Virus genome (UHGV): UHGV-0211472
From: a virus
Direction: 5' to 3' (one strand)
DNA length: 64,000 nucleotides
The notes below the pieces were generated by a model. It did not search any database. It saw only the letters and a list, made by a program, of their open reading frames with translations, and had not been told where the DNA came from. Shown piece by piece: positions 3,179 to 63,659 of this stretch (within the stretch, counting starts at the first letter, position 1; each line of letters begins with the position of its first letter). The translations under genes and the position numbers were made by a program.

Positions 3179-4231
3179 ATGTCTTTATTTGGAAAATCAG
3201 CTTCTAGCAAAACCACAGTGGCCCCTTCCTCTCAGGTTGATGCCCTGCTGAAGCAGATTGTTGCTAATGCTCAGAAGATGCAGAACAACGATCAGGGATT
3301 CATCTCCCAACAGCTGGCTGGGTTTAATAACAATCAACAAGGTGCTCTGAACAACTTATCAGCTTCTACAACTCAGAAGCAACTGGCTGACATGTACACA
3401 CCTCGTACACAGCAAGGGCTGGACCAACTTAACTCTCTTGCTCAACAGTATCAGAATATTGTCAATGGTGGTGGAGTGACAGCCGAGGGGGTTAATAACT
3501 TTAGTAAAGGGTTAAATAATTCTGCTCTTGCTCAAGCAACTAGTAAAGCAGCTTCTAATGTATCTCTCGGAAATGGTTCTGACTCAGGTTCTCTCCGTAG
3601 AGCTGCTGCTCAGGGTGCTGCTCTGAACGGTGCTAATACAAACTTAGCTCGTACTATCAGTGGTAAGAATATGGGAATCAGTGCCCTGCAACAAGACCAG
3701 AACTTCCAGAGAGGTTTGCTTGGTGCTCAGTCTGGTCTAGCTGGACAGAATCTCAATCTTGGTGCTCAAGGTGTTCAGGCAACTCAACAAGCTATTCAGA
3801 ATCAACTTATGGCTGGCAATCTACAACAGCAACAGGCTCAAGCACAAGCTGATATCAATTGGCAGAACGCTATTGGTTCTCAGCAGTACGGATGGAATCA
3901 GCTTAACAACCAACTTAATGTATTAAATAGTGTAAGCCCAATGGCTGGATATACAATTAAGAATGCCGCTCCGGGCGTTAACGTAGGACAACAGCTCCTA
4001 GGTGCTGGTATCACTGGTTTAGGTATTGCGGGTCGTATGGGTGCTTTCTCTCCTAACCAACAGACTCAGAATGCTTGGAGTTCATATAACAACTCGGGTG
4101 GGCAATCTGGAATGGCTGGTCCTATGATTGGAGGTTCTAATCTTTCTCAACAGAGGGGTCAGTCTAACTGGTTATCCACGGCAGGGAGTAATATCTTAGG
4201 TGGGGTCTTGGGGGCATTTGGAGCAAACTAA
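3179..4231 (+). CDS. Gln/Asn/Gly-rich structural protein (paralog A)
   Basis: RBS AAGGAGG; begins MSLFGK...; shares the GFNNNQ..ALNNL segment and overall Q/N/G-rich composition with the next ORF. Confidence 0.55.
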   Translation: MSLFGKSASSKTTVAPSSQVDALLKQIVANAQKMQNNDQGFISQQLAGFNNNQQGALNNLSASTTQKQLADMYTPRTQQGLDQLNSLAQQYQNIVNGGGVTAEGVNNFSKGLNNSALAQATSKAASNVSLGNGSDSGSLRRAAAQGAALNGANTNLARTISGKNMGISALQQDQNFQRGLLGAQSGLAGQNLNLGAQGVQATQQAIQNQLMAGNLQQQQAQAQADINWQNAIGSQQYGWNQLNNQLNVLNSVSPMAGYTIKNAAPGVNVGQQLLGAGITGLGIAGRMGAFSPNQQTQNAWSSYNNSGGQSGMAGPMIGGSNLSQQRGQSNWLSTAGSNILGGVLGAFGAN

Positions 4232-6942: not shown

Positions 6943-9900
6943 ATGGCTAACATTAAACCGTGGGAAGAAGCTTCCAAAGCTCCTGCGTATCTGAATGCCT
7001 CTCCGGAGCAACAAGCTCAAATGAGAGAACAATATAAGGCAGCAGGTGGCTCTATTCCTGAGGAACAACCAGTAGCACAACCACAACAAGAAGAACGTGG
7101 TGCTATAGGTGAGTTTGCTCAAGGTGTGTCAAATGCTCTTCAGTCCGGCAGTGCTAACATCTCTGCTAATCTTGCTAGGGGTATTGGAGGCTTAGTTGAG
7201 ATTGGTGAAGATCTAACTGGAGCACAAACCGGTTACGGGAAGCGTATGCAAGAGAACGCTCAAAATCTCTTGAAAGAACGTATGGATAAGATTGAGGATG
7301 GGATTGGTAAATCTGCTGGTCAGTATGCTGGGGTGGTTGCCGACATTGGTCTGACAGTTGCTAACCCATTAGTTGCCGCTGCTATCATCGCAGGTCGTGA
7401 GACAGGTCGTGCATATGCAGACCAAACCCCTGAAGAGGGGGAAGATAAGTCTGTTCTAGATGCAGCCCTAGTTGGTGGTGCTAACTATGCAGCTCAAAGA
7501 ATCCTTCCGGGTGCTGTTGGGACAGCTGAATCAGCTCTTGGTCGTATCGGTCAGAACGTTGCTAGTAACGCAGTGGCTGGTGCTAAAGGTGGTGCTCTTG
7601 TTGGTGCTGCTGAGGTTCAGAACAAGTATGGTGATGACAATGATCTAGCTAAGACATTGGAAGGTGTTATCGAAGAAGGTGCTATGGGTGCTGCATTCGG
7701 TGGTGCAGTTGGTGGGGTTCATGGTTTGATTAGCCGTCCGGATTCTGCTGTCTTCAGGAATACTCCAGAGTATGCGAAGACTGATATTGCTGCTGATGAC
7801 GAACTGATTCGTAGTGCTAAGAATGTTGATGAATTGAAAGAGGCTTACTCTAAAGCTGAAACTGCTAACGCTGCTTCTGCTCTGAACCTTCTCGATGAGA
7901 ATGGATTCCGTATTACAGATGCTGTTGCTGTAGATTCTCCTGCTGCTCAGCGTATTCTTAATACTGACCAAGCTCGTGCTGAGAAAGCTGCTTCCGTTCA
8001 GAAAGAGCATTCCAACATTCCGGGCCTTAATCCTTTAGCTTCTCCTGCTAAGACTCGTGGTAAAGCATTCGCTGATAATGAGCACAACCAGAAGCAGGCT
8101 GTTGCTATGAAGGATGCAATGGCTGACTACACCAAAGACAACACGAAAGCTCTTACAGATGTTCTGGATAACCTAGATCGTGAATTAACTTCTCTCCGAG
8201 CTTCTGGTGATTTTACTGGTAGTCCGATTGATATTAAGAACCGTACACAAGCCGACCGTGATTTCATTGATGCTTACAAGACTTTCTACAATGAAGCAAA
8301 TCGATTCAAAGCTCGTGATGGTGAAGACTTTAATAACTTTGTAGAGAAAGCTGCTGAACTACAGAAGATGGCTGATAATGTTTCTCCAGAGATGAAGAAA
8401 GCTATTGGTGGGTTGAAGAAACTGAAAGGTATGCCTGAAGGTTTTAATCCTATCCAAGATGCTTACACTCTGAACAATACAGCTAAGTTCATGAGCAATC
8501 AAGATCGTGGTTGGACTTCCCTGACTGATGATGGCTTCCGTGAGGCTTCTTCACCTAGTCTGGTAATGAACACTCTTGGTGCTGCTAAGTATGCTCTGAA
8601 TCGCTTCTCTTCTCAGCGTGCTCGTTCTCAGCGTGTTAAGCAACAAGAGTCTAACAGCGAAGCTATCCGCTCTCTGGCTCGTGGTGATTTGGAAGTTGCT
8701 CGTGCTAAATCTACTGCTGATGAAGCTCGCGCTAAGATGGAAGAAGAACCAGTTGTTGATGACATTAAATTTAAGATGCAAAATGATGTAGAAACCGAAC
8801 CGGTTCGGGAGCCTTCTTCTAGTACTGTGACGGAAGAAAATCTTCCTTCTTCTGTTCCTCAAGAAGCCCCTCTTACGGCTCGTGATTTAGTTGCTCAAAG
8901 ACGTGCAGTTAAGCAGGTGGAACAGCGTCGTGCGCAAGAAGAGGCCGCACAGGCTCCAGAATCGACCGTAGAGGAACCAACCATCAAAGCTGAGCCATTA
9001 CCTGCCCGTGCCCCTAAAGCTCCTAAGGAAGCTGTACAGGATGTTAAACCATCAATTGGTGTAGAACGTTTAGCTGCCATGTCCAGTGCTGCTCGTCAAG
9101 CTACTAAAGATCGTGCAGAACGTTTTGCTCGTTCTCTGTACTCTAAGGCTGCTAAGGCTAAAGCAACTGCTGAGAACTTCTTATCTTACAAGGGTGATCC
9201 TAAGGAGTTGATGCGTCGTATTCGTCAGGAAGATAATGCTATCAACACTGAACGTCATGAAGAAATGGCTCGTAACCAGCTGGCTTCTCAGCAAGGCATT
9301 GCTACTGCTAAGAACAACACGGTACGAACTAATTTTGCTGAATGGGTTAAGGAACGTGGTCTTCCAGAAGACATTGCTACTAAGGCATTACGTGCTGAAG
9401 AGAAAGGTTTAGGTGGGAACGTAACTAACTTGGATAGCCTGAAACGTCGTGCAGAAAGGTTATATCAGAAGCAGCGTGAGGATGAGTTTGATAGGCTGTA
9501 TCAACAAGCTCTTGAAGAGAACAAAGCTTTCGATAATAAGAATGCTCCTAAGCTGGTTGACCAGAAGAAAGAGCTTCAGTCTGAGATTGATGCTTTAATT
9601 GATTCAGAACCTTTACGTCCTGCTCAGAAAGATGCTATGCGTAAGCTGATGAATGACTTTGTAGATGGGAAGTTTAAATCTTCAGAGAAGGCTGGTAGGG
9701 AAGAGGCTTTGGAAGTTGGTCAGATGAAGGATATTTGGGATGGGTTTATCAACACCTATAACAGAGAAGTGAATGCCTTCAACAGAGCTAATAAGAACTC
9801 TCAGTATGAAGCTTTTGCTAAACACATACAGGCTCGTGAAGAACGTCTTGCTACTCTGAAAAATAAAGCTCAGGCTCGTTCAGATGCCAAGGCTGCTGTT

Positions 9901-38424: not shown

Positions 38425-38787
38425 CTATTGGTTTTTAATCAACTCAATCGACTTACGGATATAAAGAATATCTCGGAAGTTTCGATAGTTGTTCATAAAT
38501 TGGTGCTTCTGGAAAGTAGCTTCTTCCAGAGCTTTCTTTGCTTCTTCGTAGTTTTTACGGGCAAGATGTACAACCCGCTCTGGTAACACATTTGCACGAC
38601 GGATGATATACTTGTGAGCTTTCATGTTGCTTTGCTCACGAGCAATCTTACTTTTAGCAACTTTGATACCATTTGCAATCCAAGCAAGTTCTTGCTCAAG
38701 CTCATCGTTGGACATACCACCGAGGTTTGATGCAACCTTGTTCAGAGTTTCAATATTAACGTTGCCCTTAATGGGACGTGTATTCAT
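38425..38787 (-). CDS. hypothetical protein (120 aa)
   Basis: ORF. Confidence 0.45.
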   Translation of the reverse strand: MNTRPIKGNVNIETLNKVASNLGGMSNDELEQELAWIANGIKVAKSKIAREQSNMKAHKYIIRRANVLPERVVHLARKNYEEAKKALEEATFQKHQFMNNYRNFRDILYIRKSIELIKNQ

Positions 38788-38789
38788 AC

Positions 38790-38942
38790 TTACTCCTGTT
38801 GTTTACACTCGTCAGTAACCCACTGATAAGTGGATTGCCCAGAAAAGAAACACTGAATAAATCCAGATGTTCTCTGCGTTACCAGTGCTAGTGCACAAAT
38901 CACTACCGCTGCTGCTAGCAGTTTTAAACCTAATTTAGACAT
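38790..38942 (-). CDS. short secreted/membrane peptide (50 aa)
   Basis: not in ORF track; ATG preceded by GAGAGGAAAT; MSKLGLKLLAAAVVICALALV... hydrophobic N-terminus; stop adjacent to next start. Confidence 0.3.
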   Translation of the reverse strand: MSKLGLKLLAAAVVICALALVTQRTSGFIQCFFSGQSTYQWVTDECKQQE

Positions 38943-38961
38943 ATTTCCTCTCATTGAATTT

Positions 38962-38986
38962 AAAAAAGGACTCTCCGAAAAGAGCC
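38962..38986 (-). terminator. putative rho-independent terminator (minus strand)
   Basis: minus-strand hairpin GGCTCT-TTTCGG-AGAGTCC followed by TTTTTT. Confidence 0.35.
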
Positions 38987-39208
38987 AAGCTTTAAATCCA
39001 AAAAAAAGATATTACCCAATATCTGTGGATAACCTGCTCTTAAAATATCTATCCGACGGATGTTTGAGGAACACTCCTCGCCCTAGCATCGGCCCCATAC
39101 GGGAAATATATTAAGATTAGGTTAGTTGAGTTAGAATAACTCACATAGCCCTCCGAAGAAGGCTATAGGCGTTACTACAACTAAAAATCACCTGATTTTA
39201 CAAAATCA

Positions 39209-39442
39209 TCACTCGCCTTTCTTAGCACGATCTTTGGCAGTTTTGCCAGTGCGGATGCGATAGGAAACGTTAACCAGAGTGCCACCATCAACTACGGTAA
39301 CGCTCTTGTTTTTAGCCAGATCAAATACAGTCTTCTCTGTGCCACCCAAGCGAATCTGCTTAGGCTCGCTGAAGGTTTGGGTTGATTTGGATTGGAACTG
39401 GAACGGTTGACGGATTGCATCGATTGCGCTTACTTTAGACAT
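39209..39442 (-). CDS. hypothetical basic protein (77 aa)
   Basis: ATG preceded by AAGGAA at about 10 nt. Confidence 0.45.
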   Translation of the reverse strand: MSKVSAIDAIRQPFQFQSKSTQTFSEPKQIRLGGTEKTVFDLAKNKSVTVVDGGTLVNVSYRIRTGKTAKDRAKKGE

Positions 39443-39673
39443 AGGGGAAATTCCTTAAAAAGTTATGGCTGCGTAGAGGGAATTCCCTACGCAAATTGGG
39501 CCGCCTACAGAGAGGCGTCATAGTACTAAAAGGAGGAGAGAAGAAGGCTTATTTAGCTACCTTTTTCTGTCCATTTACGAACCAGATAATTGAACCGTCA
39601 GGCTGTCGTTGACCGAAGCCTTTCTGGGTAATCATATCGTCATAAGAATATGCTTTACGTCTCATTTGTTTTC

Positions 39674-39922
39674 CTATGGAGTTAAGATAATTTCAGCCTT
39701 ACTAAACTTCTCACCAACAACCATATCTCCAGAGATGACACGTAGTTCTCCAGTACCCAAATTAACAGCTCCAGCAGGTTGGCAACCTCTGCTCTTAGCT
39801 GTCATCATGTAAATCTTTTTATTCTGGCACTCTTGAAGTGTGAACACATCAGACATGTTTAGATCTTTAACACGAAGAACTATCTTTTCTATGGAATCAA
39901 CCTTGATACTGATAGTGCTCAT
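39674..39922 (-). CDS. hypothetical protein (82 aa)
   Basis: ORF; overlapping plus-strand ORF 39609..39812 judged spurious. Confidence 0.4.
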   Translation of the reverse strand: MSTISIKVDSIEKIVLRVKDLNMSDVFTLQECQNKKIYMMTAKSRGCQPAGAVNLGTGELRVISGDMVVGEKFSKAEIILTP

Positions 39923-39927
39923 TGGTA

Positions 39928-40173
39928 TTACTCCTGAACCACTGACATGCGAATCATTTCCACCTGAGTATCAGCACCTTTAGCACATAAGACCCCTGTG
40001 AGAAGATTTACCACAGTAATCCAACCGTTAACTACACTAATATTGCTAGAAGTGTTTTCAACTCTCATGTAATATTGAGGAGATGCTGAGCCACGTTGAA
40101 TTACGAATGGGTTTCCGGGAATGATAGTAGACAAGGAAACAGTATTATCTTTAATCTTGGGAATGATCTTCAC
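39928..40173 (-). CDS. hypothetical protein (81 aa)
   Basis: ORF. Confidence 0.45.
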   Translation of the reverse strand: MKIIPKIKDNTVSLSTIIPGNPFVIQRGSASPQYYMRVENTSSNISVVNGWITVVNLLTGVLCAKGADTQVEMIRMSVVQE

Positions 40174-40181
40174 ATTGATTC

Positions 40182-40493
40182 CTATTTAAGTTTGAGGCTA
40201 ATATTAAGGTGCATACATGCCCTGTTCTGTACAGCAGCATAACTTCTACCGAGCATGTCAGCCATTCTCTGAATAGACATGAACCCGGCATTACGGATAA
40301 CAAACTGATCTTCTTCTTCAGACCACTTTAATCGAGCTTTAGCGCGAGAGATTTTAAAACGAGAGCACGCAGCATTAATAATCTGTGCTGTTGTTCCCAT
40401 CATCTCTGCTACTTCTTCAACTGTGTGATCTTTAATCAGAGTCTTTAGCAAATCAATTTGCCAAGGAGTCCATTGAATCTGTGCAGGTTTCAT
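40182..40493 (-). CDS. putative HTH DNA-binding protein (103 aa)
   Basis: two HTH-like segments (TVEEVAEMMGTTAQIINAACSRF and SIQRMADMLGRSYAAVQNRA). Confidence 0.4.
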   Translation of the reverse strand: MKPAQIQWTPWQIDLLKTLIKDHTVEEVAEMMGTTAQIINAACSRFKISRAKARLKWSEEEDQFVIRNAGFMSIQRMADMLGRSYAAVQNRACMHLNISLKLK

Positions 40494-40787
40494 ATACCCT
40501 CCAATTAAACATTTATATAAGACTTGCTTAGATAAAGATTCAATAAATAGGGGGAGGGGACGAATCCTCCCTTATCCTATTAGTTACTATTGCATGTAAG
40601 ATCTAACAATCGGTTGCCTTTGTAGGAATAAGCGTTATGCTAATCCAGCACTAAACTCCCGCCCCCTTAGTGGGCTGGGTTATTAAAGGGTAACGCCCTT
40701 ATGGGCTAGTTACATGAATGTTAGTTTGATAGGAGATCTGAAGTCCTATCTCAAAGGACTCTCGTAAGAATCCTTCACGATAAGTTC

Positions 40788-40985
40788 TTAATACACTAAG
40801 CCGTGTAAAAGAAACACCCTCTTTGTAAGCTCTGCTTTAGCTCTGTAATAAGCCCTAGAACCTAACAGACGGCTCTTAACAAAGAACTTAATGTCATTGC
40901 TAACATCTTGTATTAAACGCTCCTGTACAGCTTCTGAGGAGCTATTAATCGAATCAATTAACACCTTTGTAGATGTGTAATTCAT
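40788..40985 (-). CDS. hypothetical protein (65 aa)
   Basis: ORF. Confidence 0.35.
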   Translation of the reverse strand: MNYTSTKVLIDSINSSSEAVQERLIQDVSNDIKFFVKSRLLGSRAYYRAKAELTKRVFLLHGLVY

Positions 40986-41084
40986 GTCACTACTCCCTAC
41001 TAATTACAGCCTGTAAGGGCCACACAGACGATGAAGATACAGATTAAGGATATTACACCACCCCAACTCATAACACACCTCATT

Positions 41085-41600
41085 CTATTTAGTTAACCAA
41101 AAACCTTTCGGCTTTTTAACAACACCAAGAATCCTACATCTCTTATGGACAGCCGAATCACTAACACTCAGTAACCTCCCTACTACGTACACGGGGTAAA
41201 TGTCTATTAAAGACTGAAGAGATTCTTTTGTTATTTCAAACCGTCTGCTATCTAATTTGGCACAAAGCTGTGAGCAAAACCTTTGGTTGCTATTCTCTGA
41301 AACAAGGTAAATCTCTCCACAAAAAGAACATAATCTTTCTTCCATAACAGCCCCATGATGATGCCTGCTATGCTCCTCATAAGTCATGATTTCTAAATTA
41401 GATGGTTCGTTGTTTAACTTATTCTCATCCTTGTGATGAACCACTAGGTCAGAGTTCAGTTCGACACCGTAGAAATTTTGAGCAACATACCTATGAACAT
41501 ACACCTTTCCAGCTTTATTGGCCATAGGGTGTGTTGGTTGGTACACATACAAATAACCAACACCTTTATCAACAACTGCTTTACTTAGATCTAGCTTCAT
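41085..41600 (-). CDS. HNH endonuclease
   Basis: VVHHKDENKLNNEPSNLEIMTYEEH HNH core plus C-terminal Cys-rich region. Confidence 0.65.
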   Translation of the reverse strand: MKLDLSKAVVDKGVGYLYVYQPTHPMANKAGKVYVHRYVAQNFYGVELNSDLVVHHKDENKLNNEPSNLEIMTYEEHSRHHHGAVMEERLCSFCGEIYLVSENSNQRFCSQLCAKLDSRRFEITKESLQSLIDIYPVYVVGRLLSVSDSAVHKRCRILGVVKKPKGFWLTK

Positions 41601-41720
41601 AATACCTCAAGAACTCTTAGCGAGGGTGACAGGACTCGAACCTGCATACTCCATTTACTTCTTTAACGACCACTTAGAAGGCGGGGAAGATACACCCTCA
41701 CTAAGAGCTCTCGTTAATCC

Positions 41721-41972
41721 TCAAGCACAAGCAGGGAGTGTGATGATCTTATACTTACCTTCAAACTCTCCAAACAAACCCAAGAATGTAGGACTGTAGG
41801 TTCCAGTACAAACAAACTCATCAAACAATTCGTTATAGCTAGGCTTAATCTTCCAAGCCCATACATAACCCATCCTATCAATCGCAATGTAACGAGTGTT
41901 CAGAGGAACAGTCATCATCACACCATCAACTTCAATCACTTTAGTTATTGGTGCAGCTTGAAAGTTTTTCAT
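41721..41972 (-). CDS. hypothetical protein (83 aa)
   Basis: ORF; start overlaps stop of upstream short ORF (ATGA). Confidence 0.45.
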   Translation of the reverse strand: MKNFQAAPITKVIEVDGVMMTVPLNTRYIAIDRMGYVWAWKIKPSYNELFDEFVCTGTYSPTFLGLFGEFEGKYKIITLPACA

Positions 41973-42145
41973 ACTTTACCTTTGATAAAAATATCATTAC
42001 CACAGACACAGCATGAACGAACAACAGTAGCGCCACGCTGAACGATACGAACCTCTTCCTTAACCAGATTAATACGAGCACCGCAGCAAGGAGAATTGAC
42101 ATAAGAGTAACCAGCTTGTGTATTCTTGATTGTTTGCTTAGACAT
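41969..42145 (-). CDS. short zinc-ribbon protein (58 aa)
   Basis: not in ORF track; ATG preceded by AAGAGGAAG; MSKQTIKNTQAGYSYVNSPCCGARINLVKEEVRIVQRGATVVRSCCVCGNDIFIKGKV with two Cys pairs. Confidence 0.35.
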   Translation of the reverse strand: MSKQTIKNTQAGYSYVNSPCCGARINLVKEEVRIVQRGATVVRSCCVCGNDIFIKGKV

Positions 42146-42190
42146 TTTTAGCTTCCTCTTGTTAGTTTAAGTAAGAGTTGTCCCTTAATT

Positions 42191-42230
42191 AAAACAACAA
42201 AGGCCACCCGATTGGGCAGCCTTTTTATTT
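42191..42230. terminator. rho-independent terminator hairpin (same stem sequence as at 19531..19550)
   Basis: GGCCACCC-GATT-GGGCAGCC flanked by A-run upstream and TTTTTATTT downstream. Confidence 0.4.
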
Positions 42231-42671
42231 GTTAGCTGTTATAAGTCCAACCACCTTGCTTGTTACGAATGGCAGACATTGCATGAAGCCAGAAGTCTTC
42301 CAGTTTCAGAGCACCGTTAGCTACTGCATCCATACGTTCAGGGCGGTTCATACGTTTGGTTGATACTTTCATACCTATCTCTCTTTGTTAGTGGAGGCAT
42401 TATTGCCAGTTGATATAGCGGATAGCTCTCACTATAGAGCCAACTACTCTACAAACTGGTGAAGACTCCCTACCCCTAGGAAGTCTCCTGAATCCCAAAC
42501 CAATACGTACCCCTACATATCGGAAAGTCTTTCGAAAATTAACAGGTTTTAGTCTAGCACCGGATGTTCGAGCAAGCTCTCCCTAGCGGTGTGGCATATG
42601 CCTGAATTAATAAGTTAATGAGGAACACCCTCACATAGCCCTCTGATGAATACAAGGGCTATAAGTCGGTG

Positions 42672-42968
42672 TTACTTATCAGCTTCAATCTCTTGATGCT
42701 TAGCAATAGCTACTCGCAAGTCTTCATTAGCACGAGCAAGGCGTAAGACTTCGTGGTTGAGATTCTGAAGACGGTTGTTTCTGTCTTCAACTTGCATAAC
42801 AAGATCATTAAGAGTTACTTTAACTTTCTCGCTATACATTTCATCTACTTGAATCAGAGATTTATACTTTCTCTCCCAGCTTGCTGCTTTGTTTCTAAGA
42901 ATAATAAATCCTATAACACTGATAGTTAAACAGCTTACAAAAAGGAATTTATATACTTCTAAAGTCAT
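42672..42968 (-). CDS. membrane-anchored coiled-coil protein (98 aa)
   Basis: N-terminal hydrophobic helix FLFVSCLTISVIGFIIL then charged coiled-coil-like region; adjacent to hydrolase gene. Confidence 0.45.
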   Translation of the reverse strand: MTLEVYKFLFVSCLTISVIGFIILRNKAASWERKYKSLIQVDEMYSEKVKVTLNDLVMQVEDRNNRLQNLNHEVLRLARANEDLRVAIAKHQEIEADK

Positions 42969-43167
42969 ATTATTTACCCTTTATCAGAGATTAAAAGTAA
43001 TATTATTTAAGTAAGTTATATTTAGTAAACTTATTTTCTAAGAAATTTTCAAAGGGTCTATATACAGAGCATTACTCATAGTCCCAGAATACTACCATCT
43101 TTTTCAATAAATTTACTAAGTGGTTGGTTTATAAAGGAATTTAGTTTGTCAAATCTGGCACTAGTGA

Positions 43168-43557
43168 TTATTCCCTAGAGCTATTATCGAATACTAAATC
43201 ACCACAATACATAGGATTGGCATACCATTTTGGCACCCCTTCGCTCTTACTCTGAAAGTAAGTCCCACTGTACAGCGGAACATAATTCTTCTTAAGGGCA
43301 CGTTTAGCTAGCTGCTCACTTTCTCCAATGGCTTGCTTAGTCATCGGATTTTTATCACGAATCAGCTTCACATAACGTTTATAAGGTTTCTCCTGTTTTA
43401 ATAGTACCGGAATCCACTCAAACTGGTTCTTTTGTCTTATCACCTGTTCAGCGGTCAGTTTTCGTTGAGCCATTCTATTTATTACGGTATCCGCAACCAT
43501 AGCTTTACATGCGGTTGGCTGATTCCCTGCCTCATAATAAATAGTCAATGTCAACAT
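43168..43557 (-). CDS. cell-wall hydrolase (SleB-like) - candidate endolysin
   Basis: N-terminal IYYEAGNQPTACKAMVADTVINRMAQ resembles the SleB-type cell wall hydrolase signature (IY.EARGE...A.VILNR). Confidence 0.5.
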   Translation of the reverse strand: MLTLTIYYEAGNQPTACKAMVADTVINRMAQRKLTAEQVIRQKNQFEWIPVLLKQEKPYKRYVKLIRDKNPMTKQAIGESEQLAKRALKKNYVPLYSGTYFQSKSEGVPKWYANPMYCGDLVFDNSSRE

Positions 43558-43631
43558 TAGCTGGGCCGTTGTTATCAGAACTTGCTACCTCCTTTGTTTA
43601 TAGGCCCCCAATTGTGGGGGCCTTCAGTCTG

Positions 43632-44042
43632 TCATTCAATAACTTTGTAAGATATTACGTCGCCACCGTTTTTGTGTATGTTCCAGTTCACATCTTCGGA
43701 CTTTATGACCTCTTTTCCGCCATCCCGATATATAACACTAACAATTTTACCGGTGGCTGGGTTTTCTCCGCCTCCCCAATAGCTCCACCATTTAGAGGAC
43801 TCTTCATTTTCATCGGTTGTGACAGACTCTATTGCTTTGTATTTTCCGACTGTGGACCCTGAAGAGTTCATAGCGTAGACTACGCTATACACTAAAGCGT
43901 CGCCTACTTCCTTTAAGTGTAAAGTGAACGGTCCATCAGAATCAACCGCATCTATTTTATTGCTTTTAGCGTGGTAGGAGAAAGTTTTAACCTCATATAG
44001 AGATTCTGACCCATCGTTACGCATAGCTTTTAATGTAAACAT
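43632..44042 (-). CDS. hypothetical protein (about 136 aa)
   Basis: preferred start ATG 44042 with AAGGAG at 8 nt; track ORF start at 44135 would overlap a terminator hairpin. Confidence 0.45.
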   Translation of the reverse strand: MFTLKAMRNDGSESLYEVKTFSYHAKSNKIDAVDSDGPFTLHLKEVGDALVYSVVYAMNSSGSTVGKYKAIESVTTDENEESSKWWSYWGGGENPATGKIVSVIYRDGGKEVIKSEDVNWNIHKNGGDVISYKVIE

Positions 44043-44090
44043 ATTATTCTCCTTCTTCGTAGTTAAGAAATAATCTCGTTTTACAGGCAT

Positions 44091-44116
44091 AAAAAAGCCC
44101 CAGCCGTAGCCGGGGC
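44091..44116 (-). terminator. rho-independent terminator (minus strand)
   Basis: GC-rich hairpin GCCCCGGCTACGGCTGGGGC followed by TTTTTT on the minus strand. Confidence 0.4.
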
Positions 44117-44281
44117 AAACCTGAAAGCAACACATGACCGTTGCTATAAATACACTCGCAAATGCACTTACAGCAACGCAAAAAGCCGCTCAAAGGCGGC
44201 TATGCGGAAGCTTCAAATGGGGAGAGGGCACGACGCTACAGAAAGAGCGTCACAGTACTAAAAGAGGGGGCTATATTCCTA

Positions 44282-44725
44282 CTACTTAACCCTTGCTTCT
44301 TTGATGGGGTCGATGTATTTCTCAACTCCCCACTTGTGTTTACTATCTGCGTAGAATACATCAGGTGCACACTGGCTAGTCTTAGGAAAAGCCTGCGGGT
44401 CTTTCGTGCTACCCTTAAACTTCTGTTTACCACGGGTGCGACCATTACAGAAGATTTCTAACTTCTTCTCCTCTTCTGTTTTAGCTCCCCCGCTCTGTAA
44501 TAAAGAGCGTTTATGATCGGCTAACAATAACGCATCAGCACGATGGACACGATGGCCTACACGTTTTGTCACACTGGAAGGAACATGGGATTCAGCCTCA
44601 ACCTTTGCAGCACGACGTTTTAAACTACGCTTACTAACGTGATTGGTTGCCTTTGGTTTCTCTTTCTCCAGTTCAGAGATAGAAAAACAACGACCGCCCT
44701 TCATGCTGATTTTAGATTTAGCCAC
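44282..44725 (-). CDS. basic protein (147 aa), possible nucleic-acid-binding
   Basis: Lys/Arg-rich ORF; overlapping plus ORF 44162..44461 judged spurious. Confidence 0.45.
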   Translation of the reverse strand: MAKSKISMKGGRCFSISELEKEKPKATNHVSKRSLKRRAAKVEAESHVPSSVTKRVGHRVHRADALLLADHKRSLLQSGGAKTEEEKKLEIFCNGRTRGKQKFKGSTKDPQAFPKTSQCAPDVFYADSKHKWGVEKYIDPIKEARVK

Positions 44726-44794
44726 AATCTTATTCCTTTTAGTGATAAGTTATATCGGGCAAGCCCATCAAGGCGATAGGCTTGAACAAACAAC

Positions 44795-45001
44795 TTAATT
44801 AAGTAAACCGAACGACTTCCAACTACGTGTTAAAACTGTACCATCATCCATCTTAACGGACATATTGAGAAATTTCTTTCCTTGTGTACTAATCGTTGCA
44901 ACTACTCCCGTCATTGCCTTACCTTTATTTAAGTATCGGTATGAAACACGACGCCCAAGAAGGGCTATAGGAGTCTTACTAAAAGGTTTAATATTAATCA
45001 T
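44795..45001 (-). CDS. hypothetical protein (68 aa)
   Basis: ORF. Confidence 0.4.
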   Translation of the reverse strand: MINIKPFSKTPIALLGRRVSYRYLNKGKAMTGVVATISTQGKKFLNMSVKMDDGTVLTRSWKSFGLLN

Positions 45002-45222
45002 GCTGCTTGATACCTTTTCATATATTCGATGCGGTGGGAATGTGTGTATGACGCTTTAATTGCCATTGCTCTGACTTCTTCTAAGCGTTGGTTTTCGTAA
45101 ACCTTCTTTGCTTCTTCATGGTTATGTCGTTTCTGGAGAATCTTACTACATTTACGATGGTTTCCCGTGCTGCGATGTTTCTCACAAATAGGACACTTAC
45201 CAAAGCCTTCACTAATGATCAT
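44998..45222 (-). CDS. small zinc-finger protein (74 aa)
   Basis: GKCPICEKH...HRKC motif. Confidence 0.4.
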   Translation of the reverse strand: MIISEGFGKCPICEKHRSTGNHRKCSKILQKRHNHEEAKKVYENQRLEEVRAMAIKASYTHSHRIEYMKRYQAA

Positions 45223-45482
45223 TTTCTCAATCCTACCTTACGTAGTACACGGCCTAACGTTGTTTCTTGCGTGATGGTATAACTAATCGCTTCACGTTCT
45301 AACGTCTCAATCTTCATTGGCGACGGATACCATTCACCGGTAAGCATACATTTATATTCAATGCCATACTTCTTAGATAGGCGGTAATGTTGACCGTTTC
45401 GAAGGTTTCTGTAGATCGTGGTATGTGTAGTTAACATAGTCATCACCTTTGATTGGATTCTTTGATTAATGCACTGAATCAA
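45219..45482 (-). CDS. hypothetical protein (87 aa)
   Basis: ORF. Confidence 0.4.
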   Translation of the reverse strand: MIQCINQRIQSKVMTMLTTHTTIYRNLRNGQHYRLSKKYGIEYKCMLTGEWYPSPMKIETLEREAISYTITQETTLGRVLRKVGLRK

Positions 45483-45490
45483 TGCACTGA

Positions 45491-45526
45491 TAAAAGAAAA
45501 GGCGCTACCCGTTAAGATAGCGCCTT
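45491..45526 (-). terminator. rho-independent terminator (minus strand)
   Basis: AAGGCGCTA-(10-nt loop)-TAGCGCCTT followed on minus strand by TTCTTTT. Confidence 0.4.
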
Positions 45527-45548
45527 ATGTTTATTTAAATTGTCTTAC

Positions 45549-46448
45549 TTATGCTGCCTGACGTGCTGCCATAATTTCAGCCGCTTTGCGCAGTACTTCT
45601 TCCTCTTCTGCTTTCGCAGCTTGCTCGGTACGAGTAGCAACCGTTGAAGAGATACGACCGCGCAGACTTTCTAACTTCTCCTGCATAGCTGCAACAGCCT
45701 TTTCCATTTCATCAGCGTATGAATCAAGTGATTCCAATTCCTTGCTTGATGCGTTCATCAGGTAGTCATCAGAGATTGCTACCGTTGAGGCCGTGACTTT
45801 CTTGATGAGTGAATCAAAGGACTTTTTAACTTTGCCGACTTCTTCGCTCAGGGCAATAGTGTTATCACTAGTTGCGCCGTTGCGCTCATCAGCTAGTAAT
45901 TTAGCTTCAATACGGATTGCATTCAAGCGTTCAACCAAAGCGTAAATATCTTGGTTAAAATCTTCCTTGTTTTTCGCCGGGATTTGCAGGTGTGCCGCTA
46001 CGTTGTCGTTGCAACCTTTGTAGAAGTTAGGATTATCAACTTCAATTTCACGACCTAAAGCAAAGTTTTCGAAAGCGTTTGACCAGCGAGCGCGGTTTTG
46101 TTCCATTTTGGTCTTAATCTGCGCTTCTTTCGCATCTTCTTTCGCTTTCGCTTCACCTTCCAGATTAATCCACTTTTTACGACCATTTGCCGCATCGGTG
46201 TTAAACTTGATAGGGGTTAAGAAAGTGATTGCGGTAGCAATAACATCCATATCGCGGAAGCGTTCAGTTAACAGGAAATCAACCGCCGTCTGTAATACGT
46301 CCAGTTTCTTACCGTTGCTGCGGAAGTGCTGCAAATGACCTAACAGGAAGTTAGAAACATCTTGTTTGATCGCCGCGTTATTGCTACGAATGTTGTTAGC
46401 CAGAGCATTAAAACCGGATTCGTTAACCAGAGTAAAGATTTTAGCCAT
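45549..46448 (-). CDS. hypothetical early protein (about 299 aa)
   Basis: preferred start ATG 46448 with AAGGTG at 7 nt (track start 46457 is GTG); first gene downstream of the ORF-free region. Confidence 0.5.
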   Translation of the reverse strand: MAKIFTLVNESGFNALANNIRSNNAAIKQDVSNFLLGHLQHFRSNGKKLDVLQTAVDFLLTERFRDMDVIATAITFLTPIKFNTDAANGRKKWINLEGEAKAKEDAKEAQIKTKMEQNRARWSNAFENFALGREIEVDNPNFYKGCNDNVAAHLQIPAKNKEDFNQDIYALVERLNAIRIEAKLLADERNGATSDNTIALSEEVGKVKKSFDSLIKKVTASTVAISDDYLMNASSKELESLDSYADEMEKAVAAMQEKLESLRGRISSTVATRTEQAAKAEEEEVLRKAAEIMAARQAA

Positions 46449-47370
46449 GATATTCACCTTTCAATTGTAAGGGCACTTTGCCCCGCTCTCTATGAGCTTG
46501 CTTAAGTCACTATTAACTTAACTCTAACCACTCACTATTAAGTAGTTATAGGTAAGTGGAGCGGTCTTATCAGGAATTAACCTTGCCGCTCCCTTATCCG
46601 TGATGTTTCATCTGGTATCTTTAATTAGTCGCTATAAACAAAGCCGACCTGATAGCGATGATCAATCATCACAATAAGGCAGTGCGTCCGACTCTAATTA
46701 GTTACGTTATTGTAACCGTCGGCAATATCGTCTACTTTGCTTTCGCTCTCGCCTATCCTTTTGTATCAACTCTCAATCGCTAGTCATCGCCCACTACGGG
46801 ATACTATTGCGAAAGAGTCATTGACCGTCTAATATTCCGACGTTTTATATCTTTCAGCGAGTTTACTACATAAACCGACTATGTACTTTCATCATGAGAT
46901 GAATCTCAAGCCGTTCACATTGTAAACGTTCACACTAAACCTTATTGTTAAATAGCAATTTGCCACTTTTTAACCACTCCCCGCCGCTCTCAATTGAGCG
47001 TTAATTCGTCGGACTTATCTACCCTGATTAACTTCTTTCACCGTAGCGCCTTGTTAGCGATGACCGCCGCTACCCTTAACCGTGGGCGATTAGCTTAAGT
47101 CGATGCGTGCACTCGATGAATCTGCTTATCAGTGGTGATGTTTCCAGTAAGGGATTGTAAGGCTGTTTTCTCTGATAGTTTAGAGAGTCTTACACCGTTT
47201 TATCTGGTATGCTTTCCGATGGTTATTATCATCAAGCATATTCAACCGATATAGGAGAACGTTTAAATTGTTAAAGAGCGGTAAATCTATCAGCGCGCTT
47301 TCTCACGCTATGCAACTGTTAGCCGTTGTTACGCTATTCACTGAAGCGGTGATTTGCTTAAGTGATGCTC

Positions 47371-47703
47371 ATTATGAATCATGTTGTTTTAGCTGTCAAC
47401 CACTTTTTTAATCTTTTTCGTCGTTCCCGTTATTGGGAGGATATACCAATCAGCTTTATTCGATTGGAGATTAAGCGGTAAGGCTTAACTTATGATTCAT
47501 ATTTTTAAAGAGCGGTTACTACATTCACAGCTTAACACATCGTGTTAGCTTGTCAACTCTTTTTATCATCTTCTTTGAATTCCTTTCCCTTATCTCGCGT
47601 GAATCTCTGCGAAAGGGCAAGATGATAAGTTTTTAAAGAGCAATTGCAAGTTTCCTTGCTTTGTTTCTGATACCCATCTTACTACATTTGGGCATCTTGT
47701 CAA
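47371..47703 (-). promoter_or_regulatory. cluster of three tandem sigma70-like promoters on the minus strand
   Basis: three perfect TTGACA -35 boxes (plus coords 47394-47399, 47551-47556, 47698-47703), each preceded by an A-tract (AAAAAG); copy 1 has -10 CATAAT at 17-nt spacing, copy 3 TAAGAT at 16 nt; copy 2 -10 is weak. Confidence 0.4.
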
Positions 47704-48061
47704 TCTTTTTATTTCTTATCGATTACCTGTTTTTCGTACGACTTATCAGGTTGTCTACTTGGCACTGCTTAACCGATGAATAGATAATAGTGGAAGTGAG
47801 GGAGGAAAGCAACACTTATTTTGATTATTTTCAGGGAAGGAAGATATAAAAGAACGCGCACGCGAATAACATACTAAAACAGGCTTGTAAAGCACTAGTT
47901 GACGCTCTCAGACGCATCACAACGAGCTAAAAGGAAGTAAGGCATACAATCACCTTATAAAAGAGAAAAGCCTCACTAGGAGGCTTACAGGAAGGATTAG
48001 AGAATCAGATAGATTATGACCATAGGCATGACTACGGCACAATACAGGAGAAAGATTAAGC

Positions 48062-51690: not shown

Positions 51691-52092
51691 ATGCTAGACT
51701 TAATCCACACTACTCGCCCTGATTCTAAAACTAAAACACAACCATCTACTCTGGAAGTAGTTGAATACGAATCTACTAAATATGATCACCTCCCTGACTA
51801 TGCTCGTGCAATGATTGAGATGATTGAAGAAGCTGAATATGAAATGCTCCATGATTACATTACCTCCAAAGATGAATGGCATCGTGATGTTCGCATCGAA
51901 GAAGATGGTACAGAAACAATTACGTGGATTCACAAGAGTGAGTTAGTAGACGACGCACTGCGAGACTACGAAAAATTTTTGGTCGACGGCTCTATTCTTT
52001 TAGAGGAAGAGAAGGGTGCAGAACTTCCGTGGGAAGGCGAGACGATTGCTCTTGGTAAGATGTTTAACCTGTCCGTTGGTGATTGTAAGTAA
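51691..52092 (+). CDS. hypothetical acidic protein (133 aa)
   Basis: ORF. Confidence 0.45.
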   Translation: MLDLIHTTRPDSKTKTQPSTLEVVEYESTKYDHLPDYARAMIEMIEEAEYEMLHDYITSKDEWHRDVRIEEDGTETITWIHKSELVDDALRDYEKFLVDGSILLEEEKGAELPWEGETIALGKMFNLSVGDCK

Positions 52093-56784: not shown

Positions 56785-57860
56785 TGCCACAAGATAATTA
56801 TATTGACCCGAACGATTTTAAATCTTTCCTCCAACTGGATGACCTGAAAGGTTCTTTCAAAGAAGAACTCGGTCGATTAGAATCTGAACAAGAGCCAGAA
56901 GTGGACATTGACGATGAGTTCCCGGAAAAAGACGGTGACGATTTCGACTTTGATACCGACCTTCTCGGTGAAAGCGATGAGCTTAAGTTCGAAGATGAAG
57001 ATGGTTGGGAAGATCATGATGAGGAAGGCGAAGTCGAAGAAGATGAAGATGAATCCTCTGAAGCAGAAGAGCAAGAGGAAGAAGATTCAAGTGATGCAGG
57101 GTATGAAGATGATTCTGCTGACGGTGAAGGTGAAGTCTTTGATGTAGACTACGAAACCGTTATCACCCTTCCTGATGGACGTGAGATGACTATTGAAGAA
57201 CTTTCTAATGGCTATCTTACTGGTGCTGATATGACAGAACGAGAATCAACTCTTCAGCGTCATATGGAAGCATTTGAGGAACGTGTAGTAGGTTTGAAGG
57301 ATGTATTAGAATTAGCGTCTTTAGAAGCAGACCGAGTAATTGAAGATTACAATGGTTTTGATTGGGACAAGCTTGCAGTAGAAGATCCTCAAGCATATGT
57401 TGAAAACAAACGTTTCCTAGAGAAGTACACAGCTCGTCGTAACCAGCTTGAACAGGCTCAAGTCCGTATTAAGCAGGAAGCAGCAGCTAAAGAGCAGGAA
57501 GCTTTCCAAGCCAAGAGTGTTGAGTGCGTTAATATTCTGAAACGTGAGATTCCAAATTGGGATGAAAACTTATATCAAAACTTAATGCAATATGCAATTG
57601 ACTTAGGTGCTACTGAAGAAGAAATATTGAAGGAAAACCGTCCGTCTATTTTCCTAGCTCTCCACAAAGCATACCAATTTGATAAAGGTAAGCAGCAGGT
57701 GATGGCTAAGATTAAACGTCCCGGTGCTCCACGCAAGGTTGTGAAGTCTGATGCTGCAAAGTCTCGTACTTCCAATAAGCCCGACAACGCTAAGGTTGCC
57801 AAGGCATTCGCAGAGGGTCGCGTTAGTCACGAAGACGCATTCAAATTCCTCGTAGATTAA
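56784..57860 (+). CDS. scaffolding protein candidate
   Basis: highly acidic Asp/Glu-rich segment followed by coiled-coil-like region; immediately upstream of capsid gene. Confidence 0.5.
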   Translation: MPQDNYIDPNDFKSFLQLDDLKGSFKEELGRLESEQEPEVDIDDEFPEKDGDDFDFDTDLLGESDELKFEDEDGWEDHDEEGEVEEDEDESSEAEEQEEEDSSDAGYEDDSADGEGEVFDVDYETVITLPDGREMTIEELSNGYLTGADMTERESTLQRHMEAFEERVVGLKDVLELASLEADRVIEDYNGFDWDKLAVEDPQAYVENKRFLEKYTARRNQLEQAQVRIKQEAAAKEQEAFQAKSVECVNILKREIPNWDENLYQNLMQYAIDLGATEEEILKENRPSIFLALHKAYQFDKGKQQVMAKIKRPGAPRKVVKSDAAKSRTSNKPDNAKVAKAFAEGRVSHEDAFKFLVD

Positions 57861-60926: not shown

Positions 60927-63659
60927 ATGATTAGTTACAACAATTCAGCACCTAAAGCGGTAAATAATGTAGGGCAATTCGGTGCTACAGAAGGGTCCAT
61001 TGGTGCATATAAATCAGCAGCTGAGTATGCGTCTGATGCTAAATACTGGGCACTTCTATCCCAAACTAAATACTCTTCAGTAGAGGATATTCTGGCTGAA
61101 GTAGAACGCCTGTATGCTCAAGGTTATCTACTGGAAGAAGATATTAAACAGCTTAAGAGTGACTTTGAGTCACAAGAGCAAGTGCTCTTAGGCTTGATTC
61201 AATCCACAGGAACTGCAATTGACAACACTAATGCAGCAACTGAACTTTCAAAAGAGGCAACTCAAAATGTTCTAGCACAACTTGACATTATCTCTAATAT
61301 GACAGTTCAAACAACGCTACTCCCTCCCGGAAGTTTAGCAACTGGATCTTATGACAACTTAACTGGAGAGTTTTCTTTTGGTATTCCAGAAGGTAAACCG
61401 GGCCGTGATGGGACAGATGGTACGATTTCTGATATCGGCAGTGTTCCTATTGGTACCCCTGTTACTGATGACTTCGGTTTCTATGTAGATCAGGATGATG
61501 GTGGTTTATACCGAGCCAATATGTCTGATATTGCCAACCTAGTGCCTTCTATCCGATCTATCTCTATCAACGGCGGTGCAGAGCAGACGGGTACTGTATC
61601 TTTTAACTCTGTATCTAGTTTTAACACTCGTACCGGAGATGTTGTATCACAAACTGGTGATTATGAAGTAAGTCAAATCACAGGGGCGGCTGCTAGTGGT
61701 GATAATTCAGATATTACATCCCTTTCTGGCCTTACTACAGCAATATCTGTTTCACAGGGTGGTACAGGGGCTACATCTGCTGAGAATGCTCGAGTAAATC
61801 TTGGACTCGGTTCAGTGTCTGTGGAAAATGTAACCCCTTTAACTAAAGGAGGTACAGGAGCTACTACACCTTCTGGTGCACGTAGTAATCTTGGCTTAGG
61901 TTTAGTTTCAACTGAATCTATCGTGCCAATCACTAAAGGTGGTACAGGGGCTACATCTGCTGAGAATGCTCGATTGGCATTGGTTGCAGCTAAAAGCGGT
62001 GCTAACTCAGATATTACATCAATGACAAATAGCGTCACTTTTACCCAGCCAATATCTATTGCCGATGGGGTAAGTGCTACAAACGCTGTGAACCTCGGTC
62101 AAATTTCCTCAAATCAAGGGGCTTCTTTAATTGGTGTTAAGCAACCCTTTACAAACACAGTAGCTCGGACACAATACGACAAGAATGCGGAGATGATATC
62201 CATTCGTGACTTCCATCAGAGCACTGACCCTGACTGGACGCTTGCGTTTAATCGTGCGTCAACAGTATCTGCACAGCAGGGGAAAATTATATTCGTACCT
62301 GCCGGTGAGTACAAAATATCAGATTCTATCCTTCTCTATGATTCGGAAGATGTTTACAACGAGAAATATTATCAGCCACCAGGGAGCCGATTTGTCGGGG
62401 AGGGCCGCGCATCTATTATTCGCAAGACAGCGGTAGGGACTCAGGACATTAACGCTGTTTTCTACAACAAAGGTAAGCGCGGTAATGTTGTCCGTGGACT
62501 GCGCATTCTGGATGAGACAACGGATAGTTACGGGTATTACACACCCAATACAGCTGTATACCAGGAATTTAGCGATCTGTTTATCCTGGCACAAAAATGG
62601 GGAATGTATTTTGGAGGTAATACCTTTGTTGGTGTTTCCCTCCGCGAAATCGTTGTCCAAGGTTCAAACGCTACGGGTATATATGGTGGTATTCATATCC
62701 ATGGCGGGACGAGCTACGTAGTATCTCAATGTAATGTGTTTAAAGCGAACTACTGTTCCTTTGAGTTGACTGGCTCATACTGCGAAGTGGGACCATTAGC
62801 ATCTGATGATTGCACTGGGACTCCGTATATTTTTAACGCAGGCTCGTACAGCGTTTCATCTTTAGGCTGTGAGCAGCCTTCGCGCCAGAACAGTGGAACA
62901 ATTATTAAGGGAACCGGGGCTAACTTGCAGATAGACAATATACATCTGTATGACCAAACGCAGATTGCCGGTAGCTACATGTTTGACCTATCCGGCTATG
63001 CGAAAGTAAGTATTAAGCAACTAATCACCAGCTCAACCACTACTTTCAATGGTGCGATGGCCCGTTTAAACAACGGTGCTAAGTTAGAAATCGTGTACAG
63101 CAATAAGGTTGAAACGTCGTGGCCTCAAAGGAATTCTTATGACACAACAACAACAACTTTCGCTACGTTAGGAAGTCTTGGTGGTGTGGCAACCATCCCG
63201 ACATTCGGAACTACTATGTGCCGAGATATAGCTCTACCAAATCCGAACCAGGAGAATGGTCCCTACTATCGTATTGTTGGTGGTCAATATGGAACTCGTG
63301 GTTGTATTGGAACTATATTCACTCTACGTAGTGGTACTGGTATGACTCCTATCGCAGGTGCTTATAATCTTAACACAGTAAGCAGTAACACTGCTACGAA
63401 CGCAAAATTAGTTAAAGCTGCTCATTGCGACACTGAAGCCCTCAAAGACTATGATAAATGGTTCACTGGTACGTACGAAGGGACGTCTTATCTATTTATC
63501 CGTATGCCTATTGAAGGCGGGGATCGCAACCTCGGGACATTCTTCTCTGGTGTTGTTTTTGGACAAGATCGAAATATGTTCAAAACCTTGTTAGGGAGTG
63601 AGATCTCCGGACTAACTGAATATTCGTCGGGTAGTATTCTTACCGCGCAGGCAACTTAA
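60927..63659 (+). CDS. tail fiber / tailspike-like protein
   Basis: 910 aa; three copies of KGGTGATSAENAR-(V/L) repeat typical of fiber shafts; Gly/Thr/Ser-rich C-terminal region consistent with beta-helical fold. Confidence 0.6.
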   Translation: MISYNNSAPKAVNNVGQFGATEGSIGAYKSAAEYASDAKYWALLSQTKYSSVEDILAEVERLYAQGYLLEEDIKQLKSDFESQEQVLLGLIQSTGTAIDNTNAATELSKEATQNVLAQLDIISNMTVQTTLLPPGSLATGSYDNLTGEFSFGIPEGKPGRDGTDGTISDIGSVPIGTPVTDDFGFYVDQDDGGLYRANMSDIANLVPSIRSISINGGAEQTGTVSFNSVSSFNTRTGDVVSQTGDYEVSQITGAAASGDNSDITSLSGLTTAISVSQGGTGATSAENARVNLGLGSVSVENVTPLTKGGTGATTPSGARSNLGLGLVSTESIVPITKGGTGATSAENARLALVAAKSGANSDITSMTNSVTFTQPISIADGVSATNAVNLGQISSNQGASLIGVKQPFTNTVARTQYDKNAEMISIRDFHQSTDPDWTLAFNRASTVSAQQGKIIFVPAGEYKISDSILLYDSEDVYNEKYYQPPGSRFVGEGRASIIRKTAVGTQDINAVFYNKGKRGNVVRGLRILDETTDSYGYYTPNTAVYQEFSDLFILAQKWGMYFGGNTFVGVSLREIVVQGSNATGIYGGIHIHGGTSYVVSQCNVFKANYCSFELTGSYCEVGPLASDDCTGTPYIFNAGSYSVSSLGCEQPSRQNSGTIIKGTGANLQIDNIHLYDQTQIAGSYMFDLSGYAKVSIKQLITSSTTTFNGAMARLNNGAKLEIVYSNKVETSWPQRNSYDTTTTTFATLGSLGGVATIPTFGTTMCRDIALPNPNQENGPYYRIVGGQYGTRGCIGTIFTLRSGTGMTPIAGAYNLNTVSSNTATNAKLVKAAHCDTEALKDYDKWFTGTYEGTSYLFIRMPIEGGDRNLGTFFSGVVFGQDRNMFKTLLGSEISGLTEYSSGSILTAQAT

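Follow-up and report, generated by a model that had tools for sequence, protein, structure and literature searches.

What is the short intergenic element that recurs at two gene junctions of the 64,000-nucleotide stretch of virus genome UHGV-0211472 analysed here (in the following, the window)? A sequence-only reading had described it as a conserved 35-bp element with a covarying hairpin and had offered RNA processing sites, transcriptional attenuators or promoters for a phage sigma factor as possible functions. Judged from the sequence of the window, the source phage is a phiEco32-like coliphage (Kuravirus, Gordonclarkvirinae): the region from 36 to 48 kb is ~ 90% identical to phiEco32-like coliphages, and the window is a circular permutation of phiEco32, with position 1 corresponding to phiEco32 19123 and position 51742 to phiEco32 1290. 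The genes between 11 and 50 kb are carried by the minus strand, and near-consensus sigma-70 early promoters are found on the same strand at about 47.4, 47.7, 49.3, 49.5 and 49.8 kb. Therefore, both copies of the element, A and B, lie within a leftward early transcription unit.

Both sequences were found in the window, but their coordinates had been given with an offset of 5 nt (A) and 2 nt (B). Copy A (CGCCTACAG...AAAAGGAGG) spans 39502-39536 instead of 39497-39531 and copy B (CGACGCTACAG...GGGGG) spans 44231-44270 instead of 44233-44272, in both cases with the minus strand as the coding strand. As described before, the copies are located just past stop codons, starting 17–18 nt after the stop: copy A is downstream of a g94-like ORF (39549-39665, stop codon 39549-39551) and copy B is downstream of a g120-like ORF (44282-44725). 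The similarity of the two loci is limited to ~ 40 nt. Read on the coding strand, each copy comprises a pyrimidine-rich run, the box TTTTAGTACTRTGACGC and a short hairpin, for which the end of the box provides the 5' arm. A location upstream of the next terminator, which had been proposed as well, applies to copy B, which lies ~ 30 nt before the canonical intrinsic terminator T1 (44201-44184, minus strand). T1 was found beside site B in every relative compared, and the distance is 9 nt in Suseptimavirus.

The core shared by the two copies is not random. With up to three mismatches, the 18-mer GCGTCAYAGTACTAAAAG was found three times in the window versus 0.13 expected, and none of 100 shuffles reached three matches. 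The genome-wide, mismatch-tolerant search that had been suggested for further copies thereby revealed one more at 8816-8833; it is on the plus strand and inside a gene, and the occurrence of the element is thus wider than the two gene junctions described when this copy was missed. The box of site A (TACTATGAC, 39517..39525, minus strand) and that of site B (TACTGTGAC, 44249..44257, minus strand) match TACTRTGMC exactly, and the box of site C, the third copy, is again TACTGTGAC (8823..8831, plus strand) and lies inside the homologue of phiEco32 gene 26. The conserved blocks extend beyond the boxes to TAGTACTATGACGC at site A (39528..39515, minus strand), TAGTACTGTGACGC at site B (44260..44247, minus strand) and TAGTACTGTGACGG at site C (8820-8833, plus strand). 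At site A, the box is preceded by TAG, the AG of which is at 39527-39526, and the spacer between the g94-like stop codon and the box (39548 down to 39529, minus strand) is pyrimidine-rich and ends with TTTT; the run GCCTTCTTCT ahead of site C resembles this spacer.

Common to all three sites is the 13-mer TAGTACTRTGACG, whose threefold occurrence is not to be expected by chance; for a third copy arising by chance in the window, we estimate ~ 0.004. By count, TACTRTGMC is at chance level in the 64 kb of the window (three matches versus 2.16 expected). The window and phiEco32 contain exactly three TACTRTGMC sites each, and these are the same three, located in phiEco32 at 63070 (A), 70592 (B) and 27941 (C). 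Two of the sites in the window are on the minus and one is on the plus strand, in each case the coding strand of the local genes, and two of the three (A and B) are found at gene boundaries. Counted from the early-gene end of phiEco32, B is at 9.0%, A at 18.7% and C at 64.0% of the genome, which places two of three within 19% of the early end.

Copy A was found in ~ 98 phage records and copy B in ~ 92. Representatives of Kuravirus, Nieuwekanaalvirus and Suseptimavirus were fetched and their copies were aligned anchored on the box. This alignment of sites A, B and C from three genera revealed a near-invariant T-A-C-T-R-T-G-A-C-G with at least 90% identity per column, whereas the flanks amounted to 30–80%. 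The constrained part is thus the box TACTRTGACG and not the stem. At site A, the box is invariant across the three genera; at site B, the exact 9-mer is present in most lineages fetched from them, and two lineages have a degenerate copy. Site C is kept in phiEco32 and in all three genera, including synonymous positions, within a stretch of gene 26 that is otherwise 73–78% identical and contains indels, although the encoded peptide TVTEE could account for part of this conservation. For the flanking g120 protein, distant homologues were not found outside Gordonclarkvirinae and, therefore, the comparative depth is three genera.

The box has a counterpart in the literature. The DNA of Pseudomonas phage tf has 14 nicks, all in one strand, which were established by run-off sequencing, primer extension and ligase-reversible fragmentation; their consensus is 5'-TACT/RTGMC-3' with the nick after position 4, the main variants are TACTGTGAC and TACTATGAC, and nicking was abolished by single substitutions at positions 1, 3 or 4 (Glukhov et al. 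2012, PMC3517423). The GenBank record of tf annotates the sites as localized single-chain interruptions, sci1-14. A G is found at position 10 in 11 of these 14 sites, and in sci1/tf_04, sci4/tf_15 and sci11/tf_41 the RTG is the start codon of the next gene. In phage Rembedalsseter, WACTRTGAC was found at 13 strand-specific drops of ONT coverage; its enrichment extends to 60 related Pseudomonas phages, where most occurrences are on the coding strand and gene starts are a frequent location, but the same survey found no enrichment outside that cluster of Pseudomonas phages (Dougherty et al. 2025, PMC11780129). The published TACT/RTGMC cases that we found are from Pseudomonas phages only, and our literature search gave no paper connecting nicks with phiEco32, Kuravirus or Salmonella phage 7-11.

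We are highly confident that the core of the element, as judged by this match, belongs to the TACT/RTGMC family of nick-site motifs. Since the box is the nick consensus of related Pseudomonas phages, it is most likely a nick site, which is predicted here as new for phiEco32-like coliphages. On balance, we consider it probable that the element marks site-specific single-strand nicks in the virion DNA of kuraviruses, with an adjoining hairpin. By analogy with tf, a phage-specified nickase would, late in infection, cut the motif-bearing strand between T4 and R5 of 5'-TACT/RTGAC(G)-3', and the resulting ligatable nick with 3'-OH and 5'-P would be packaged into virions. The predicted nicks are between 39522 and 39521 at site A (minus strand, after g94), between 44254 and 44253 at site B (minus strand, after g120 and just before the tandem terminators closing the first early operon) and between 8826 and 8827 at site C (plus strand, inside gene 26). 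Each predicted site directly precedes a short inverted repeat, and the GAC(G) of the site is where the 5' arm of this repeat begins. The hairpin may help to present or stabilise the nicked strand, or may allow folding on the 5' side of that strand, which is the least certain step of the scheme; another possibility is a separate function in the early mRNA, where the hairpin might weakly terminate transcription or stabilise a 3' end before T1.

The identity of the motif and its conservation would be explained equally well if the box were a DNA binding site, duplex or single-stranded, for a different conserved protein of the phage, such as one acting in packaging or in the initiation of replication, and if kuravirus DNA were not nicked at all. 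The small number of three sites per genome at fixed positions would suit such a protein, as would the observation that the one nickase candidate considered was not detected in phiEco32. We know of no candidate protein that binds the TACTRTGAC box. Nicking, however, is the only property of the motif that has been established experimentally, in tf and Rembedalsseter, and we assign a low probability to binding by another protein. A T7-endonuclease-I-like protein was considered as nickase on the basis of shared presence and was rejected: tf (tf_46) and 7-11 (gp029) have one, but phiEco32 has no detectable homologue, since tblastn gave no match in phiEco32 or in the window.

A nick site in kuraviruses finds a basis in the relationship of these phages to the tf lineage. 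A tblastx comparison of tf with phiEco32 revealed as shared TerL, the portal, the major capsid protein and a tail protein, further a split DNA polymerase with exonuclease subunit, a primase/helicase and a 5'-3' exonuclease, and an amidoligase/ATP-grasp cluster. In a ranking by TerL, the 7-11/phiEco32 group with its enterobacterial relatives was followed by a Vibrio phage and then by LUZ24-like phages with ~ 40% identity, just above P22-like phages with ~ 36%. The shared gene core and the TerL ranking make a shared, inherited nicking system plausible.

The genome of Salmonella phage 7-11 contains 13 exact TACTRTGMC sites, 12 of them on the minus strand, versus ~ 3 expected for both strands, and 18 exact CTACTRTGA. 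These sites are mostly within genes and clustered toward the early-gene end; they are found in different reading frames, and a protein-coding motif was rejected as the source of the box on these grounds. The 7-11 sites have the extended consensus aaCTACTGTGACGg and seven of them are in the last 16% of the genome, which is the early end; at 57091 and at 83748, the gene that follows is annotated as starting with the RTG of the motif. No enrichment was seen in 30000-76631 (46.6 kb) of Cronobacter phage GAP52, which is closely related to 7-11: a single WACTRTGMC site was found at 73260 on the minus strand near the early end, versus ~ 3 expected. Since GAP52 has one site, the enrichment of the motif is, by these sequence counts, patchy within Grimontviridae.

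Compared to tf and the LUZ24-like phages, the kuravirus sites have the same sequence variants (TACTATGAC/TACTGTGAC) with G at position 10, the window sites are likewise on the coding strand, often at gene boundaries and biased to the early end, and the kuraviruses have the core of structural and replication genes that is common to the LUZ24-like lineage. Unlike those phages, which have 8–14 sites per genome, the kuraviruses have three predicted nick sites, on both strands and not enriched; a location in one strand at above-chance number, as seen for tf-type sites, was found in 7-11 but neither in the window and phiEco32 (three sites each) nor in GAP52. Further differences are that each kuravirus site is coupled to an adjacent hairpin and that kuraviruses infect E. 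coli and have a sigma factor of the ECF type.

The hairpin was the feature stressed by the sequence-only reading. At site A, it is formed by CGCCT (39517-39513), a loop CTCTGT and AGGCG (39506-39502) on the minus strand, with an RNAfold energy of −7.4 kcal/mol, and its 5' arm overlaps the box. At site B, GACGCT (44251-44246) pairs with AGCGTC (44237-44232) around the loop CTTTCTGT on the minus strand (RNAfold about −9 to −11 kcal/mol), and downstream of the box of site C, GGAAG (8832-8836) can pair with CTTCC (8842-8846) on the plus strand. Among the genera, the stem of copy A is CGCCT/AGGCG in Kuravirus, GACGCT/AGCGTC in Nieuwekanaalvirus (EP335) and CGCC/GGCG in Suseptimavirus, and that of copy B is GACGCT/AGCGTC in Kuravirus and GACGCTC/GAGCGTC in Suseptimavirus (7–8 bp). 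Since the 3' arms of different copies were not in register in any alignment, the stems were evaluated by shuffling the tail of each sequence rather than by counting covariation by columns. The stem of copy A in the window was reached by 411 of 2000 tail shuffles and is not significant, and copy A stems were weak overall (411/2000, 181/2000 and 1524/2000); the Kuravirus copy B stem was marginal (59/2000) and that of Suseptimavirus convincing (12/2000 and 8/2000). The two stems that had been taken as compensatory exist, but they are weak evidence for selection on structure. Covariation in relatives, proposed as a check, is real but thin: A>G changes opposite U occurred twice independently and result in U.G wobbles, in copy A of Bas90/NJ01 and in copy B of TH42, and one A>C change opens a loop-closing pair.

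The sequence following the three kuravirus sites had an MFE of −7.4 to −9.2 kcal/mol versus −3.07 ± 2.44 kcal/mol for a GAC-anchored background (P = 0.0008). The same trend was weaker after the sites of tf (P = 0.04) and 7-11 (P = 0.017), in which no hairpin was found at a fixed position or geometry. In sum, copy B has a convincing hairpin and copy A a weak one, and that of site C may be compositional.

A hairpin that folds on the coding strand just past stop codons, with copy B ahead of T1, could as well have its main function in the polycistronic mRNA of the early genes, by acting as an attenuator or weak intrinsic terminator or by stabilising a 3' end or processing site, with the box recognised by an RNA-binding factor or an RNase. 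The two U.G wobbles speak for such a function, and the variable stem and the loop of 8–11 nt between the arms suit a hairpin better than the operator of a dimeric protein, for which a palindrome was rejected because of this varying spacing. Like intrinsic terminators, the element is a G+C-rich hairpin directly after a stop codon, and a T-run follows the hairpin in copy A of EP335, 4E8 and KBNP1711 as well as in the two copies of Suseptimavirus; the GenBank records of 4E8 and SU7 annotate the hairpin as terminator. In contrast, the window copies end with ...AGGCGGCCCAATT and ...AGCGTCGTGCCCTC, a U-tract is absent from them and from every Kuravirus-type copy examined, the terminator scan lists neither, and their stems of 5–6 bp are joined to a conserved 5' flank that terminators do not need. 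Copy A stems amount to 4–6 bp and did not exceed shuffles. Moreover, the box outlasts the stem, since copy B of 4E8 and KBNP1711 has lost the 3' arm but keeps the first ten box bases TACTGTGACG, and it is also present in gene 26 and, in 7-11 and tf, in many coding regions. The box deviates from the consensus for RNase E, and RNase III would require a longer stem. A cmscan search of 36000-48000 against Rfam (E ≤ 1) gave a tRNA and two chance-level matches, none of them at the element. The attenuator or processing site put forward earlier is thus backed to some extent by the hairpin but not by a box that is found on the other strand inside a gene, and we regard a function mainly in RNA as rather unlikely.

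The surroundings of the copies raise the possibility of a linker at module boundaries that shuffles small early genes by recombination, for which the PeSL (promoter-early stem-loop) cassettes of T4-type phages provide a comparison. The homology between Kuravirus and Suseptimavirus copy A ends right behind the hairpin's 5' arm (it covers only query positions 6-52), genes were inserted or deleted beside both copies (a 414-nt gene after A and a 174-nt gene before B), and types of upstream flank are swapped between copies A and B across the genera. A linker would, however, have only two intergenic copies, no promoter and a third copy within a large structural gene, and it leaves unexplained why the ten conserved bases are those of a known nick motif; we therefore consider this very improbable.

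The promoter for the phage sigma factor that the sequence-only reading had proposed did not hold. The promoter motif of this factor, gp36, is tAATGTAtA, with AATGTA centred at −11.5 (PMC4281155, PMC12276001), and is absent from the element; in the window, TAATGTAT matches it at 3556, 3916, 6896, 15427, 19911 and 60123. Host sigma-70 could be considered with TACTRT as −10 region, because TACTAT/TACTGT retains T1, A2 and T6 of the −10 hexamer, but the aligned copies have no conserved −35 region or TG extension, and transcription starting 7 nt downstream would begin within the stem. The consensus scan gave no minus-strand promoter at A or B, only a weak 9/12 match on the plus strand at 44249-44277, and sigma-70 promoters with −35 and −10 regions spaced by 16–18 bp were not found on the coding strand at either copy. 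A promoter for either sigma factor is extremely improbable. Further candidates were rejected: a small ORF that would begin with the RTG in the box is conserved neither in frame nor in length (28, 21, 20 and 5 codons) and has no Shine-Dalgarno sequence, conservation of the lambda-nut/boxA-like CGCTCTTT in the loop of copy B extends neither to copy A nor to other genera, and nothing consistent was found in a search for a larger conserved RNA structure around A or B.

The nick site predicted for kuraviruses can be compared to interruptions in other virulent phages. Those of the packaged DNA of T5, phiKMV-like and LUZ24-like phages are site-specific. The major nicks of coliphage T5/BF23 have the consensus R/GCGCRGG (quoted in PMC3517423), and those of phiKMV-like phages CGACxxxxxCCTA/CTCCGG (Kulakov et al. 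2009, cited in PMC3517423). The phiKMV-like nicks are sequence-specific like the predicted kuravirus sites and are repaired early and reappear late in infection, but they differ by their motif, by their location in what is reportedly the non-coding strand and by the T7-like RNA polymerase of these phages. T5 resembles the prediction in being a virulent coliphage with few, fixed and strand-specific interruptions in its packaged DNA, whereas its motif and lineage are unrelated and its nicks are all in one strand. Such nicks have been known in packaged T5 DNA for about 50 years, and more recently from phiKMV-like and LUZ24-like phages; the major ones of T5 are located at 7.9, 18.5, 32.6, 64.8 and 99.5% of the genome, the first at the boundary of the first-step-transfer DNA. 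That the phiEco32 sites at 9.0, 18.7 and 64.0% are close to those of T5 at 7.9, 18.5 and 64.8% is probably a coincidence.

To our knowledge, the site-specific nicks of phages have no accepted function and the TACT/RTGMC class has no identified enzyme. The conservation of the motif in kuraviruses and its enrichment in 7-11 extend the nick motif system to enterobacterial phages and suggest that, as far as motif occurrence can tell, the TACT/RTGMC system is ancestral to the phiEco32/LUZ24 supergroup. From the identity and conservation of the motif, the relatedness of the phages and the enrichment in 7-11 we infer that kuravirus DNA may be nicked and that the nicks may have a purpose. It is possible, if doubtful, that phiEco32-like phages carry a minimal, positionally fixed TACT/RTGAC system of three hairpin-coupled nicks that are fixed across three genera and one of which lies exactly where the first early operon ends, before the tandem terminators. 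If so, the nicks would be functional landmarks and not incidental marks, they might bound staged DNA entry or early transcription, as the nick at 7.9% does in the first-step transfer of T5, or prime strand-displacement replication, and E. coli would offer the first genetically tractable system in which this motif family could be assigned a nickase and a function. A host and a phage set are available with phiEco32 and the BASEL phages Bas86-94, where eliminating every site could take three point mutations. Nick sites also cause strand-specific coverage drops and false termini in sequencing and are, therefore, worth annotating.

Several further observations were made at and around the copies. 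In copy B of phage E20-1 (locus 7735-7725), the box is degenerate (CACTACGAC) and differs at two positions where substitutions prevent nicking in tf. The 7-bp hairpin and the T-run are preserved there, and the ORF upstream is longer; by its sequence, this copy may represent a natural variant that has lost the site. Just downstream of site B, T1 and a second terminator, T2 (44116-44097, minus strand), form a pair of strong tandem intrinsic terminators ~ 65 nt apart (44097-44201). The spacer between them has a hairpin of its own (GTTGCT...AGCAAC) and could be a small RNA or a promoter-bearing spacer; in Rfam, it gave only a chance-level match to MicX (E = 0.17). Further upstream in the early region, a 1.6-kb stretch (46458-48061, minus strand) has no ORF of at least 35 aa. 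Three sigma-70 promoters close to the consensus are located in it, and a boxA-like sequence lies after each of them (TTGCTCTTTAAAAAC, CCGCTCTTTAAAAAT and CCGCTCTTTAACAATTT); part of the third such sequence is GCTCTTTAACAA, which we take to be the core of an rrn-type boxA. This series suggests a Nus-factor-dependent antitermination of early transcription with a leader RNA of more than 1 kb.

A second repeated intergenic element was found on the minus strand in two long intergenic regions, 38955-39208 and 42373-42671; it comprises a hairpin TATAGCC...GGGCTATGTGAG, followed by GTGTTCCTCA and ACATCCG. Finally, copy A is followed by a second hairpin at 39471-39492 (minus strand), whose sequence GCGTAGGGAATTCCCTCTACGC aligns with the first codons ATGTCTGGGAAATTCCCTAACG... 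of the 414-nt Suseptimavirus gene that occupies the same position after copy A; according to this alignment, the hairpin may be the remnant of a deleted gene and not a functional structure.
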